A DNA stretch of 64,000 nucleotides, from positions 2,893-66,892 of the forward strand of contig JAVBUN010000096.1 in the NCBI GenBank assembly GCA_031555335.1. Reading direction: 5' to 3'. Below the pieces are notes generated by a model, which did no database searches, was not told the origin of the DNA, and was given only the letters and a program-made list of their open reading frames with translations. Source of the DNA: Microbacterium sp. GTDB taxonomy: Bacteria; Actinomycetota; Actinomycetes; Actinomycetales; Microbacteriaceae. Shown here one piece after another: positions 42,309-54,936 of the stretch. The position numbers and the translations under genes are program-made. Positions within the stretch are counted from its first letter, which is position 1. Each line of letters begins with the position of its first letter.

Positions 42309-43766
42309 TCAGATCGCGATGACGACGCTCTTGGACTCGCAGAAACCGCGCAGGCCTTCTTCGCCGAGGTCCCGGCCCAGTCCGGACTCGCCGACGCCGC
42401 CGAACGACAGCGCCGGATCGAAGATGTTGTAGGTGTTGACCCACACCGTCCCGGCGGTGATGGCGGCGGCCATCCGGTGCGCGCGGGACAGATCCCGCGT
42501 CCACACCCCGGCGGCCAGACCGTACGACGTGTCGTTCGCGATGCGCACGGCATCCGCCTCGTCGTCGAAGGGGATGATGCCCACGACCGGGCCGAAGATC
42601 TCCTCACGGGCGATCGTCATGTCGTTGGTCACACCGGAGAAGAGCGTCGGCTCGACGTAGTACCCGGGCGAGCGGGTGCCGCCGCCGACCACGAGGGTCG
42701 CGCCCTCGTCGACGCCCTGACGGATGTAGCCGAGGACGCGTTCGCGCTGCTCCTCGGAGACGAGCGGACCGACGGTGATGCCGCCGTCGAGACCATCGCC
42801 GACCGGCACCCGCCGTACCGCCGCGGCCAGCCGCTCGGTCATCTCGTCGAGGATGGAGCGCTGCACCAGGAGGCGGCTCCCGGCGGTGCACATCTGTCCG
42901 GAGTGCCCGAACGATGCGCGCATGGCGGTGAGCACAGCGGCGTCCAGGTCGGCGTCCTCGAAGACGATGTTGGGGCTCTTGCCGCCGAGCTCGAGCGTCA
43001 CCCGCTTGAAGTCGTCGGCGGCGACGTGCGCGACGATCCGCCCGACCTCGGTGGATCCCGTGAACGTGATCTTCGCGATCCCCGGGTGGGCGGTCAGCGC
43101 CGCACCCACGCGGCCGTCCCCCGTGAGGACGCTCACGACGCCCTCGGGGATCCCGGCCTCCTGCAGGATCGCCGCCAGGCGCAACAGCGTGAGTGGGGTG
43201 TCCTCCGCGGGCTTGGCGATGACGGGGCAGCCGGCGGCCAGCGCCGGGGCGAGCTTGAACGCGGCCGTCATGATCGGGAAGTTCCACGGCAGCACGATGG
43301 CGACCGGCCCGACCGGCTCGAGCACCGTGTAGACGTGGTGTGCGCCGCCGTCGATGGGGACCACGGTGCCGCCGAGGCGCGAGGGCGCCCCGGCGAAGTG
43401 CCGGAACGTGCGGGCCGCGCTCATCGTGTCCGCGCGGGAGCGCTCGATCGGCTTGCCGTTGTCGCGCGTCTCGAGGATCGCGAGCTCCTCGAGGCGCTCC
43501 TCGATGAGGTCCGCGACGCGGTTCAGGATGCGGGAGCGATCCAGCGGCGCCATCCCGCGCCACCGCCGGTCGGCGTGGGCGGCCACGGCGATCGACACCG
43601 CCGCGTCCACATCGGCCGCGGTCGCCTGCGCGACGGTCGTGAGCGGCTCCTGCGTGGCGGGGTCGACGACCGTGAGCAGCTCGCGGGCGCCCGCAGGCAC
43701 CCACTCGCCGCCGAGGAGGAACGGTTCGTACGCGGGCAGGGCGCTGACGGTGGTGCGGATGGTCAT
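42309..43766 (-). CDS. Aldehyde dehydrogenase
   Basis: 'PWNFP', 'FTGS', 'LELGGKSP', 'GQMC', 'EEIFGPV'. Confidence 0.95.
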   Translation of the reverse strand: MTIRTTVSALPAYEPFLLGGEWVPAGARELLTVVDPATQEPLTTVAQATAADVDAAVSIAVAAHADRRWRGMAPLDRSRILNRVADLIEERLEELAILETRDNGKPIERSRADTMSAARTFRHFAGAPSRLGGTVVPIDGGAHHVYTVLEPVGPVAIVLPWNFPIMTAAFKLAPALAAGCPVIAKPAEDTPLTLLRLAAILQEAGIPEGVVSVLTGDGRVGAALTAHPGIAKITFTGSTEVGRIVAHVAADDFKRVTLELGGKSPNIVFEDADLDAAVLTAMRASFGHSGQMCTAGSRLLVQRSILDEMTERLAAAVRRVPVGDGLDGGITVGPLVSEEQRERVLGYIRQGVDEGATLVVGGGTRSPGYYVEPTLFSGVTNDMTIAREEIFGPVVGIIPFDDEADAVRIANDTSYGLAAGVWTRDLSRAHRMAAAITAGTVWVNTYNIFDPALSFGGVGESGLGRDLGEEGLRGFCESKSVVIAI

Positions 43767-43784
43767 CGGTGTTCCTCTCGGAGA

Positions 43785-52601: not shown

Positions 52602-53692
52602 AGTCCCCGTCGTGTCGTGGAGATGAAGTCCAGGTCGGGTCGTTCGACCCCCAGCGCCAGGTCGGCAGCGGCGTCGCCCACCGCGGGACCGAACTTGAAG
52701 CCGTGGCCCGAGCAGGCGGACACGACCACGACCTCGGGCGCGTCGGTGAGCGGTCCGAGGATGAAGCGTTTGTCCGCGGTCATCGTGTAGAGGCAGGCGG
52801 CGGCCTCGACCGGCGCCGGGTCGAGCCCGGGCACGAACGTCGACAGGAGCCGCTGCAAGGCGGCGGTCTCGGCCTCGTCCGGTGCGGCCACCGGAATCTC
52901 GGGATCCCAGACATCCCGCGCATCGACGCCGAGCTTCACGCCGTTGCCATCGGCATCCGGGATGCCGAAGACGAGCCCCTCGGCCCGGTCGACGGAGAAG
53001 GCGCCGAGCATCGGCGGGATGCCGGCCTCCTGCCCGGCGGCGACCGTGAGCGTGAGGATGCGCCAGACCTCGAGGAGCGGGGCGAGGGCGGGAACGAGCG
53101 AGGACATCCAGCTGCCGCCCGCCAGCACGAGGCGCCGCGCACGGAGTTCGCCCTGGTCGGTGCGGACGAGTACCCCGCCCGCGTCGCGCTCCCAGCCGAG
53201 CACGTCGACGCCGCCACGGAGATCCGCGCCGTGGCGCGTGGCCTCGGCGCGGAGGACTGTCTGTGCCCGCTCGGCCTCGATCACACCCGCCGAGGGGTCG
53301 GACACCGCCCCGTAGCCCTCCGGCACGACGAAGCCGGGCATGAGCGCTTCCATCTCGCCGCGCTCAGACACCGCTCGACAGCCCGGCCCCTGCAGCTGCG
53401 CCGCACCCGCGTGCGCGTAGAGCCCGCCGGTCCGGTGGATGAGCGTCTCGCCGCCGGCGGCCTCGAGCGCCTCCCACCCGGTCCAGGCGCGATCGACGAG
53501 ATCGTTCCAGACCGGGTTCGGGTAGGCGCGTCGGATCATCCGGGTGCGTCCGTGCGACGAGCCCCGGGCATGTCCGGGGGCGAACCGGTCGAGGCCGATG
53601 ACGTCGACGCCGCGGCGGGCGAGCGACGCGGCGGTCGCGAGCCCGTGGATGCCCTGTCCGACGACGAGGACGTCGGTGTCGACTCCGCTCAC
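52598..53692 (-). CDS. Monomeric sarcosine/N-methyl-amino-acid oxidase-like flavoprotein (SolA/MSOX family)
   Basis: 'GSSHGRTRMIR', 'ACLYT' (FAD-linking Cys), 'SGHGFKF'. Confidence 0.87.
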   Translation of the reverse strand: MSGVDTDVLVVGQGIHGLATAASLARRGVDVIGLDRFAPGHARGSSHGRTRMIRRAYPNPVWNDLVDRAWTGWEALEAAGGETLIHRTGGLYAHAGAAQLQGPGCRAVSERGEMEALMPGFVVPEGYGAVSDPSAGVIEAERAQTVLRAEATRHGADLRGGVDVLGWERDAGGVLVRTDQGELRARRLVLAGGSWMSSLVPALAPLLEVWRILTLTVAAGQEAGIPPMLGAFSVDRAEGLVFGIPDADGNGVKLGVDARDVWDPEIPVAAPDEAETAALQRLLSTFVPGLDPAPVEAAACLYTMTADKRFILGPLTDAPEVVVVSACSGHGFKFGPAVGDAAADLALGVERPDLDFISTTRRGL

Positions 53693-54936
53693 GCGGCGCC
53701 GCCCGCAGCATCCGAGGCGACGGCGGTGACCGCCTCGACCAGTGCGTCGACGTCGGATTCGTCGTTGTACACGTGCAGCGAGGCACGCACGACGGCGTCG
53801 AGGCCACGCGCACCCAGGTCCCACTGTCCGTGCGTCGCCGGAACCGAGACCACACGCACCGACCGGCGCGACAGGGCGTCGACGACGAGCGGAGAGACGA
53901 CGCCCGCGATGTCGAAGGTGACGATCGCGCTGTCCGCGCCCTCCGGGTCAGCCACGCGGACGCCGGGGATCATCGCGAGCTGCGCGCGGAGTGTCCGCCC
54001 GCCCTCGCGGAGGTGCGCCTGCGTCGGCAGGATCCCGCGCGACAGCGCCTCGTCGACGGCGACACCGAGCCCCAGGCGCGCGGAGACGGCGGCCTCCCAG
54101 CTCTCGTACCGGCGCGCGCTCTGGGTGAGCTCCCATGCGAGCGGCGAGCTCCACTGCGCGCCCCGGACGTCCGGGGCGGTGGGGGCGAGCCGCTCCATCA
54201 GGGACGCGGAGACGTACGCGAATCCCGTCCCCCGGGGTGCGCGCAGGAACTTGCGACCCGTCGTCACGAGGATGTCGCACCCCACCGCGTCGACGTCCAC
54301 CCCGAGATGGCCGACCGACTGCGTGGCGTCGAGGATGTACACCGCGCCGTGTCGGCGGGTGATCGCCCCGATGGCCGCCACCGGCTCCGTCAGTCCGGAC
54401 GAGGTCGGGACGTGCGAGACGGTCACCGTCGTCGGCCGACCGTCGGCGAGCATCGCGTCCAACGCCTCGAGGTCCACACACCCCCGATCATCCACCGGCG
54501 CGAGCACGAGTTCCACCTCGCGCTCGCGGGCGAGTGTCATGAGGTGGAGGGCGTGGCTGACGTAGGTGGTGCTCGCGGCGACGATGCGGGAGCCCGCGGC
54601 CGGGCGGAGGGCGTCCAGCAGCACGCGCAGCCCCGCGGAGGCGCTGTCGAACAACGCGATCTCCGACGCCCGCGCGCCGATGAGTGCCGCGGTGCTGTCG
54701 TAGATGGCGTCGAGGCGGTCCCGCACGACGGCAGCGGCCTCGTAGCCGCCGATCGCCTCCTCGAGCCGGAGATGCTGCACGACCGTGTCGACGACCGACA
54801 CCGACGGAAGGGCGGACCCCGCAGCGTTGAGATGGTGCGACCGCGTCGCGCCCACGGTGCGCATCCGCTCCGCAGCCACGTCGACCGCGCCGGTGGTGGC
54901 GATGACCGCGGGGTGCGATCCGTCCCTCGGTGTCAT
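53689..54936 (-). CDS. PLP-dependent aminotransferase class V / C-S lyase (EgtE-like)
   Basis: 'HLNAAG', 'DATQSVG', 'TGRKFLRAPRGTG', 'VRASLHVYN'. Confidence 0.85.
   Translation of the reverse strand: MTPRDGSHPAVIATTGAVDVAAERMRTVGATRSHHLNAAGSALPSVSVVDTVVQHLRLEEAIGGYEAAAVVRDRLDAIYDSTAALIGARASEIALFDSASAGLRVLLDALRPAAGSRIVAASTTYVSHALHLMTLAREREVELVLAPVDDRGCVDLEALDAMLADGRPTTVTVSHVPTSSGLTEPVAAIGAITRRHGAVYILDATQSVGHLGVDVDAVGCDILVTTGRKFLRAPRGTGFAYVSASLMERLAPTAPDVRGAQWSSPLAWELTQSARRYESWEAAVSARLGLGVAVDEALSRGILPTQAHLREGGRTLRAQLAMIPGVRVADPEGADSAIVTFDIAGVVSPLVVDALSRRSVRVVSVPATHGQWDLGARGLDAVVRASLHVYNDESDVDALVEAVTAVASDAAGGAA

Follow-up and report, generated by a model that had tools for sequence, protein, structure and literature searches.

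What is the role of a ligase resembling glutamine synthetase (a GS-like ligase) that is encoded directly beside a Rieske oxygenase in an actinobacterial genome? The question is raised by a 64,000-nucleotide (nt) stretch of DNA from Microbacterium sp. (GenBank assembly GCA_031555335.1, contig JAVBUN010000096.1, positions 2,893 to 66,892 of the forward strand), referred to here as the window and numbered from its first letter, in which positions 42,309 to 54,936 encode such a pair together with several oxidases, an aldehyde dehydrogenase (ALDH) and a gamma-glutamyltransferase-family (GGT) enzyme. A first-pass annotation had read this interval as a system that gamma-glutamylates, oxygenates and then deglutamylates an amine. 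A "glutamylate then oxygenate" core was found to be well supported, and we consider it fairly probable that this core is an actinobacterial version of the GS-dependent arylamine dioxygenases, with the partner enzymes and the scheme of regulation proposed below.

Gene models were built from an analysis of G+C content by codon position and from Pfam and NCBIfam scans of the window, which contains approximately 70% G+C. The interval consists of two minus-strand operons, A and B, which flank one plus-strand regulator gene. The genes listed in the first-pass annotation were all recovered where it had placed them and with the families it had assigned, and the gene boundaries, including those of the 509-residue ligase, agree with those called independently in public data for metagenome contigs of identical sequence. 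Inspection of motifs showed that the catalytic motifs are intact across the core and partner proteins of Table 1. In operon B, the stop codon of the Rieske gene (TGA, 45309-45307) lies within the start of the ligase gene, whose ATG is at 45314 with a GGAGG 9 nt upstream, resulting in an overlap of 8 nt (ATGCGTGA); that the two genes overlap had already been remarked upon in the first-pass annotation. The overlap is identical, or measures 4 to 14 nt, in the orthologues of Micromonospora, Streptomyces and Pseudonocardia; the arrangement points to translational coupling of the ligase to the Rieske gene, and the coupling appears to be conserved.

The pairing was then assessed in other genomes, at the 80 best loci that code for a Rieske relative. 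In 69 of these the GS-like gene was located directly downstream of the Rieske gene and in one directly upstream. Four of the ten unpaired loci are truncated by the end of a contig and a fifth offers only approximately 2 kb of room; the 84 to 2112 nt left in these five are too few for a complete GS gene. The two genes are hence adjacent in 70 of approximately 75 evaluable loci, and the pair is present in all 28 actinobacterial ones, which supports the ligase as an obligate genomic partner of the oxygenase. Relatives of the Rieske protein at approximately 36-38% identity have no GS neighbor. A tblastn search of plasmids located both proteins, adjacent and at 47-53% identity, in Burkholderia, Caballeronia, Cupriavidus, Polaromonas, Methylobacterium and on pSA3 of Novosphingobium resinovorum SA1.

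Among solved structures, the top match of the ligase is NpaA1 (8WWU; E 1e-126), which aligns end to end at approximately 43% identity (42-44% when DcaQ-like proteins are included), and none of the true glutamine synthetases in the PDB comes near its score. Identity to PuuA is 27%, as compared with 49% to the Sad-like homolog of N. resinovorum SA1. The metal motifs are kept (E-x-E at residues 187-189 and 257-259, H-x-H at 316), as are the equivalents of the catalytic residues E232 and E234 of NpaA1, and KDTS takes the place of DGSS at the site aligned to the ammonium-site Asp loop (NpaA1 D76), so that the earlier observation of a GS-like protein with metal and ATP motifs lacking the DGSS of GlnA was borne out. 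The additional N-terminal loop that lines the amine pocket (the "15th motif"; TVPSSLLLKDTSGQ) aligns to V68'-M81' of NpaA1 without a gap. In a quick IQ-TREE maximum-likelihood tree with SH-aLRT support, three ligase clades were resolved: (i) an actinobacterial clade that includes the window protein (support 99), (ii) a proteobacterial clade with SA1, Methylobacterium and Burkholderia, and (iii) NpaA1 together with a DcaQ-like protein. The three clades unite at a support of 98, and PuuA and the GS-like paralog from the same genome fall outside on very long branches. The first-pass annotation had asked for a phylogeny against AtdA1, TdnQ and PuuA; its PuuA part can be answered by this tree, in which the aniline-type ligases are represented by NpaA1 and a DcaQ-like protein and the window ligase groups with these, far from PuuA. 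Close homologs of the Burkholderia ligase carry generic names in their source records, except for two automatic "gamma-glutamylanilide synthase" labels. Taken together, these comparisons support the assignment of the ligase to the group that gamma-glutamylates organic amines ("GoaS") rather than to GlnA or PuuA, in agreement with what had been proposed initially.

The closest solved structures to the Rieske protein in a PDB search were isophthalate dioxygenase 9INA (1.3e-68) and the phthalate dioxygenases 7FHR and 7FJL, all of them alpha-only class IA enzymes, unlike the alpha/beta aniline dioxygenases. The Rieske and iron-site motifs are kept (CxH..CxxH; H178, H183 and D274), identity to the GS-linked Rieske genes on proteobacterial plasmids is 49-53%, and neither the Pfam scan nor the public gene call placed a beta-subunit gene in operon B. 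The reductase encoded ahead of it is of the phthalate dioxygenase reductase (PDR) type; among solved structures it comes nearest to the PDR-like domains of P450 fusions (6KBH, 2.7e-72) and to phthalate dioxygenase reductase 2PIA (2.9e-47), and its RxYS, GGIGxTP and CxxxxCxxC motifs are present.

A paired palindrome, GGATCC-N15-GGATCC, occurs upstream of both operons and at five other island promoters (9 matches where 0.61 would be expected), with half-sites at 23594, 56572, 56665/56686 and 62751. When an AT-rich spacer is considered, the 2.69-Mb assembly contains seven such sites, all of which are located inside this island of approximately 40 kb. The site was also found at the matching promoters of orthologous clusters in many Actinomycetota, including distant ones, approximately 1 kb upstream of the Rieske gene, and in none of the proteobacterial loci. 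It is probably the operator of the GntR/FCD-family regulator encoded between the operons. Since the operator is shared, conserved and specific to the island, the membership of operons A and B in one regulon is directly supported, and with it the earlier claim that the reductase, the GGT-family enzyme and the copper amine oxidase (CuAO) belong to the same regulon.

Six genes co-occur with the pair in loci from several actinobacterial orders despite rearranged gene order and orientation, namely those for ALDH, CuAO, a class-V pyridoxal phosphate-dependent enzyme (AT5), a SolA-like flavin amine oxidase, GGT and the GntR regulator; the taxa include Microbacteriaceae, Jiangella, Saccharomonospora, Streptomyces, Micromonospora, Actinoplanes, Streptosporangiaceae, Rhodoglobus and Patulibacter. 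The regulator accompanies the pair in 21 and GGT in approximately 15 of the 28 actinobacterial loci, and one Micromonospora locus consists of the minimal set GGT-GntR-reductase-Rieske-GS. The ALDH gene, noted before as the follower of the ligase gene, starts 18 nt after it and holds this place in most actinobacterial loci; the protein contains the ELGG motif and the catalytic Cys, and its nearest NCBIfam models, StyD phenylacetaldehyde dehydrogenase and betaine-aldehyde dehydrogenase, scored below their cut-offs. AT5 reached 177 bits with the EgtE model (cut-off 400) and gave weak PDB matches, and the SolA-like protein reached 248.9 bits with the N-methyl-L-tryptophan oxidase model (cut-off 257) and matched sarcosine oxidase 7EXS at 3e-59. 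These two are encoded by separate, overlapping genes in the window. In five genomes, those of a Micromonospora, a Streptomyces, two Actinoplanes and a Patulibacter, they form a single fused AT5::SolA frame of 830-856 amino acids (L027 14368-16779, L031 14599-17043, L033 14240-16495, L043 5188-7482 and L030 4321-6690), which in Micromonospora and Streptomyces directly follows Rieske-GS-ALDH. To our knowledge, no function has been described for this pair of domains.

The GGT-family protein possesses the context GDT313ASV around its N-terminal nucleophile (Ntn), is read from its N-terminus as a cytoplasmic enzyme, and is likely the gamma-glutamyl-amide hydrolase of the system. CuAO exceeded the cut-off of the NCBIfam primary-amine oxidase model (741 bits, cut-off 651) and contains the NYD motif of the topaquinone (TPQ) cofactor. 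Its C-terminus (49048-49230) is a Cys/His-rich tail (…CACAPGACQCGGHDHGSAHGAHGHDAGHAEH), and a DUF5134 membrane protein is encoded next to it; the two may constitute a copper-delivery arrangement. In contrast to these recurrent partners, the block of phosphotriesterase-family (PTE), isochorismatase-like, GMC oxidoreductase and amidase genes was observed in only a subset of the orthologous clusters and is therefore regarded as accessory, and the proposal of GMC and amidase as steps of the pathway needs correction to that extent.

Two residues and two gene neighborhoods bear on the substrate. In NpaA1, a hydrophobic loop from the neighboring subunit lines the amine pocket and contributes the ring-stacking Phe75' (PMC11335346). 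At the corresponding position the window ligase has Lys99, within LLLKDTS. Of 74 ligases linked to a Rieske gene, 71 have a Lys there, as does none of the five unlinked references. In isophthalate dioxygenase, R234 (equivalent to R244 of phthalate dioxygenase) forms a salt bridge with the carboxylate of the substrate (PMC12445078); Arg246 of the window oxygenase aligns to this residue and is present in all 84 sequences compared. Genes of the 4-aminobenzoate-synthesis type (pab; aminodeoxychorismate synthase/lyase) adjoin the pair in two unrelated actinobacterial loci, in one as a Chorismate_bind::Aminotran_4 fusion and in the other as GATase::Chorismate_bind plus Aminotran_4. The loci belong to Pseudonocardia zijingensis (L102 7025-8845) and to an uncultured actinomycetote (L110 6103-9011), the latter at the edge of a cluster containing polyketide synthase genes, and we estimate the chance expectation at well below 0.1 cases among 29 loci. 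The pair may sometimes act on self-made 4-aminobenzoate. Lys99, Arg246 and the two pab neighborhoods together favor an anionic, 4-aminobenzoate-like arylamine as the substrate, and the model scores of CuAO and ALDH would fit enzymes that turn an aminoalkyl side chain into an acid of this kind. The earlier suggestion of amine and alcohol oxidation on a side chain, feeding an aryl acid into the core, would be compatible with the same two residues.

From the families, motifs, phylogeny, co-conservation and operator described above, we infer the chemical steps and the identity of the substrate as follows. The ligase would use ATP to join the gamma-carboxyl of glutamate to the amino group of an aromatic, possibly heteroaromatic, amine that most likely bears an anionic group, for example 4-aminobenzoate. 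The Rieske oxygenase, receiving electrons from the PDR-type reductase, would dihydroxylate the ring at the nitrogen-bearing carbon and the adjacent carbon. The nitrogen would then depart attached to glutamate, presumably as glutamine, leaving a catechol (protocatechuate, for example) to be processed by ring-cleavage enzymes encoded elsewhere in the genome. A pcaHG-like gene set and another intradiol dioxygenase gene are located on other contigs. The release of ring nitrogen on glutamate would suit a nitrogen-scavenging island. The conversion of aminoalkyl, N-alkyl or hydroxymethyl side chains to aldehydes is proposed as the task of CuAO, of AT5 with SolA and, in clusters that have it, of the GMC oxidase, and ALDH would oxidize these aldehydes to the acid recognized by ligase and oxygenase. 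A single GntR/FCD regulator would control the island through the GGATCC-N15-GGATCC operator.

One point at which this scheme departs from the initial proposal is deglutamylation. In the Npa system, NpaA1, A3, A4 and A5 are enough to convert the amine to the diol, and the amidotransferase-like NpaA2 is dispensable and thought to hydrolyze the gamma-glutamyl amide back to the amine, in work done in a ggt-deleted host (PMC11335346). By this precedent the dioxygenase itself releases the nitrogen and gives the diol directly, and the productive deglutamylation by GGT or an amidase that had been put forward is not supported. By analogy, the GGT-family enzyme of the window is probably the counterpart of AtdA2/NpaA2, a safety valve returning excess gamma-glutamyl arylamide to the amine rather than a productive third step.

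The closest documented precedent is the Sad system. In Hydrogenophaga intermedia PBC, the sad operon encodes the oxygenase SadA, the GS-like SadB, the ferredoxin SadC and the reductase SadD, which perform the deaminating dioxygenation of 4-aminobenzenesulfonate (4-aminobenzenesulfonate 3,4-dioxygenase); the authors suspected that the natural substrate resembles sulfanilate and acknowledged the natural substrate of Sad-type enzymes as an open question (PMC5632844). As in Sad, a single-subunit Rieske oxygenase stands directly beside a GS-like ligase in the window. With the pSA3-borne pair of SA1, a sulfanilate degrader, both window proteins share approximately 49-50% identity; that pair is probably orthologous to SadA/SadB, judging from host and context. 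The resemblance of the window proteins extends to the Lys of the ligase loop and to the Arg/Gln/Pro/Ile pocket residues of the oxygenase. The differences are considerable: the window pair falls in an actinobacterial clade of its own; a single fused PDR-type reductase replaces the ferredoxin and flavin adenine dinucleotide (FAD) reductase; three pocket positions of the oxygenase differ; a GGT-family enzyme is found, with no glutaminase or C26 hydrolase; and CuAO, ALDH, AT5, SolA, the GntR regulator and an operator of its own are added as conserved elements. The locus of Burkholderia sp. YI23 combines a GS-like ligase and a Rieske oxygenase, 47-53% identical to the window pair, with a ferredoxin, a reductase and a C26-type hydrolase, and therewith differs from the window in reductase type, hydrolase type and the extra partners. 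The catabolic cluster for 4-aminobenzoate (also named pab) of Paraburkholderia terrae KU-15 is reported to work through such a set, the ligase forming gamma-glutamyl-4-carboxyanilide, the Rieske oxygenase with ferredoxin and reductase yielding protocatechuate, and a C26-type hydrolase reversing the ligation, an account for which we did not find support in the literature searched. No homologs of the Burkholderia ferredoxin or reductase were found near the pair in the 80 loci, and no C26 hydrolase adjoins it there.

The aniline-type systems (AtdA1-A5, TdnQTA1A2B, DcaQTA1A2B and NpaA1-A5) share the logic of a GS-like ligase that makes a gamma-glutamyl arylamide and a Rieske dioxygenase that gives the diol, and NpaA1 is a proven arylamine gamma-glutamylase, whose action on 1-naphthylamine and on anilines opens a Rieske-dependent pathway (PMC11335346). 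The ligase likeness to Npa and Dca was described above. In contrast, their oxygenases are alpha + beta enzymes of another Rieske family, their hydrolase is a type-1 glutamine amidotransferase instead of a GGT-family enzyme, and the NpaA1 loop is hydrophobic where that of the window carries Lys. The reference aniline-type loci show the order Q-T-A1-A2-B, and no NpaA2 homologs were found in the 80 loci. Of the Atd/Tdn precedent invoked in the first-pass annotation, the ligase-oxygenase logic was therefore retained, while the closest system turned out to be the alpha-only, phthalate-family Sad type and not the two-subunit Atd/Tdn type. Membership in the Atd/Tdn-type aniline dioxygenases was rejected, there being neither a beta subunit nor an amidotransferase in the window. 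The window system works like Sad and Atd/Npa yet meets neither definition in full, as reductase, hydrolase, partners and regulation differ. Its substrate is probably a natural one.

Several observations weigh against this interpretation. Some members of the ligase group stand in contexts that do not look aromatic, as in Rhodococcus qingshengii, where an amidase, an AmiS transporter and an acetate-CoA ligase are encoded at the locus, and phylogeny alone is therefore no proof of an arylamine; in the published tree, the isopropylamine ligase IpuC, which our tree does not include, sits on the NpaA1 branch (PMC11335346). Actinobacterial and proteobacterial oxygenases differ at the pocket positions V179, F260 and G303. 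The adjacency to pab genes is limited to two of 29 actinobacterial loci, and the substrate is deduced from the two residues and two neighborhoods given above. Ring-cleavage genes were found neither in the island nor adjoining the pair in the 80 loci; with these, a ferredoxin, an FAD reductase and a C26 hydrolase all missing beside the pair, the product cannot be inferred from the neighbors. Lastly, the scheme leaves the roles of AT5/SolA, the four PTE paralogs, the two luciferase-like monooxygenases and the RidA pair unexplained.

These points invite other readings of the locus. The GMC and ALDH genes in one operon form an alcohol-to-acid pair, GGT and two amidases are present in the regulon, and the phthalate Rieske family includes monooxygenases and demethylases, NdmA, DdmC and KshA being among the weaker PDB matches of the window protein; together with the position of IpuC, this would be expected of an Ipu/Pip-like route for aliphatic or alicyclic amines, in which the ligase protects the amine, the Rieske enzyme monooxygenates a C-H bond, GMC and ALDH lead to the acid, and GGT or amidase productively deglutamylates. 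We consider such a route unlikely, as the oxygenase is most closely related to ring dioxygenases and the ligase to arylamine ligases, many pair-bearing clusters have no GMC gene, and Lys99 and Arg246 suggest that an acid group is present before ligation. A polyamine or biogenic-monoamine route of the Puu/Pau type is far less probable still. It would cast the GS-like ligase as PuuA, the SolA-like oxidase as PuuB, ALDH as PuuC and GGT as PuuD, with the Rieske enzyme as a side activity, and it shares with E. coli PuuABCD the gamma-glutamyl tag, an FAD amine oxidase, an ALDH and a gamma-glutamyl hydrolase, all four classes being under one regulon; PotD-like binding proteins are also encoded in the island. 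The best NCBIfam model of the ligase is indeed gamma-glutamylputrescine synthetase, but the score is 250 bits against a cut-off of 650, ALDH reaches 413 of 850 bits with the PuuC model, and the SolA-like protein is 24% identical to PuuB. Puu has no Rieske partner, whereas the tightest linkage of the ligase is everywhere to the Rieske gene and not to the oxidase. The PuuA-like reading of the ligase was rejected on these model scores and on the identity and tree placement reported above.

The diversity of the island could also mean that unrelated amine, amide and ureide modules have been collected under one regulator for nitrogen scavenging, with CuAO/ALDH, AT5/SolA and Rieske/GS acting on different compounds. 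Seven operators do stand ahead of very diverse enzymes and two transport systems, accessory genes differ between genomes, and minimal loci with only the pair occur in Pseudonocardia and many Proteobacteria. Such a mosaic may hold for the accessory genes but seems doubtful to us overall, given that ALDH, CuAO, AT5 and SolA stay with the pair through shuffling of gene order in distant orders, that ALDH and the AT5::SolA fusion are co-operonic with it in Micromonospora and Streptomyces, and that a single island-specific operator implies one class of inducer. At the opposite extreme, the entire regulon might be dedicated to breaking down, by a route not yet described, a natural amino-(hetero)aryl metabolite with an aminomethyl, N-alkyl or hydroxymethyl side chain, a prospect that we rate as rather improbable. 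In such a route, CuAO, AT5::SolA and GMC would converge on one aldehyde, ALDH would yield the acid, the ring nitrogen would pass into glutamine, and the Rut-like families of the island (the luciferase-like monooxygenases, isochorismatase-like hydrolase, RidA pair, alpha/beta hydrolase, PTE-type enzymes and amidases) would dismantle the ring. Candidate substrates would be folate-derived 4-aminobenzoate compounds, antibiotic precursors of the 4-aminophenylalanine type, and the thiamine pyrimidines 4-amino-5-aminomethyl- or 4-amino-5-hydroxymethyl-2-methylpyrimidine. Catabolism of vitamin B6 (pyridoxamine/pyridoxine), suggested by GMC, ALDH, the lactonase-like PTEs and AT5, was set aside because it leaves the obligate ligase unexplained.

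With an actinobacterial GS-dependent arylamine dioxygenase as the preferred reading, the existence of the Sad-type precedent makes the concept less new. The chemistry of glutamylation followed by oxygenation is already known from aniline and sulfanilate degraders, and what is new is an actinobacterial form that is conserved widely and has not been studied. Most work on GS-dependent arylamine dioxygenases has dealt with xenobiotic pathways carried on plasmids of Proteobacteria; the present cluster shows the ligase/oxygenase pair as a conserved, regulated and horizontally mobile unit in many soil Actinomycetota, with fixed partners and a recognizable operator. Between the window genome and those of Jiangella, Saccharomonospora and Streptomyces sp. 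PT12 (loci L021, L022 and L023), identity amounts to 84-87% for the Rieske protein and to 79-81% for the ligase. The Rieske gene was found in only four of 24 sampled Microbacterium genomes, in three of which the whole cluster is syntenic, and the high identity across taxa combined with this patchy occurrence in the genus itself indicates that the island is horizontally mobile among Actinomycetota. The cluster offers a concrete way to the natural substrate and makes it possible to ask whether nitrogen from aromatic amines enters metabolism directly in the form of glutamine. The replacement of Phe by Lys in the ligase loop provides a simple predictor, open to testing, of whether a ligase is specific for anionic or for neutral arylamines.

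Table 1. Genes and operator sites of the island, in window coordinates.
Feature	Position	Strand	Location and family matches
PDR-type reductase (FMN/NAD domains + C-terminal plant-type 2Fe-2S)	46699-47646	-	operon B gene 1; Pfam Fer2, NAD_binding_1
Alpha-only phthalate-family Rieske non-haem-iron oxygenase	45307-46644	-	operon B; Pfam Rieske, LigXa_C
GS-like glutamate-amine ligase (gamma-glutamyl-arylamide synthetase type)	43785-45314	-	operon B; Pfam Gln-synt_C 251 bits
NAD(P)-dependent ALDH	42309-43766	-	operon B; Pfam Aldedh 581 bits
Operon B accessory tail (five genes)	36630-42281	-	Pfam; NCBIfam matches sub-threshold or generic
PTE-family hydrolase	41268-42281	-	operon B tail
PTE-family hydrolase	40224-41243	-	operon B tail
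Isochorismatase-like hydrolase	39586-40212	-	operon B tail
GMC oxidoreductase	38060-39589	-	operon B tail
Amidase	36630-38063	-	operon B tail, end of operon
GntR/FCD-family regulator	47795-48514	+	divergent from operon B; Pfam GntR, FCD
Class-V enzyme AT5 (distantly EgtE/cysteine-desulfurase-like)	53689-54936	-	operon A gene 1; Pfam Aminotran_5
SolA-like (sarcosine/N-methyltryptophan-oxidase-like) flavin amine oxidase	52598-53692	-	operon A; Pfam DAO
GGT-family Ntn hydrolase	51054-52598	-	operon A; Pfam G_glu_transpept 289 bits, full length
Copper (TPQ) primary-amine oxidase (CuAO), Cys/His-rich C-terminal tail	49048-51057	-	operon A; Pfam Cu_amine_oxid
DUF5134 membrane protein	48528-49043	-	last operon A gene; Pfam DUF5134
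Operator GGATCC-N15-GGATCC	47651-47677	.	reductase/GntR divergent promoter
Operator GGATCC-N15-GGATCC	54961-54987	.	upstream of AT5-SolA-GGT-CuAO operon
Operator GGATCC-N15-GGATCC	19317-19343		further island promoter
Operator GGATCC-N15-GGATCC	20995-21021		further island promoter
Operator GGATCC-N15-GGATCC	28253-28279		further island promoter
Operator GGATCC-N15-GGATCC	29558-29584		further island promoter
Operator GGATCC-N15-GGATCC	35450-35476		further island promoter
PTE-family paralog	18267-19271
PTE-family paralog	31710-32648
Luciferase-like monooxygenase	21026-22138		Rut-like family
Luciferase-like monooxygenase	55133-56512		Rut-like family
RidA	23051-23554		Rut-like family
RidA	23653-24159		Rut-like family
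Alpha/beta hydrolase	56695-57415		Rut-like family
Opp/Dpp-type ABC transporter	57476-63190		island edge

Beyond the two operons, the single regulon contains four PTE-family paralogs in all, each of which scored below the curated model cut-offs. Enzyme families of the Rut pyrimidine pathway are also represented in the island, by two luciferase-like monooxygenases, the isochorismatase-like hydrolase of operon B, two RidA proteins and an alpha/beta hydrolase, with scores far under the equivalog level; their presence hints that a nitrogen heterocycle may be opened by the island. The binding proteins, PTEs, amidases, isochorismatase-like protein, RidA pair and Amidohydro_2 pair gave zero NCBIfam equivalog matches and so provide no substrate clue. 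An Opp/Dpp-type ATP-binding cassette (ABC) transporter is located at the edge of the island and consists of an SBP_bac_5 binding protein, two permeases and two ATPases, the first ATPase being fused to one of the permeases. Operator half-sites are found upstream of this transporter, and in the clusters of Micromonospora and Streptomyces the CuAO gene is likewise followed by genes of the SBP_bac_5 family.

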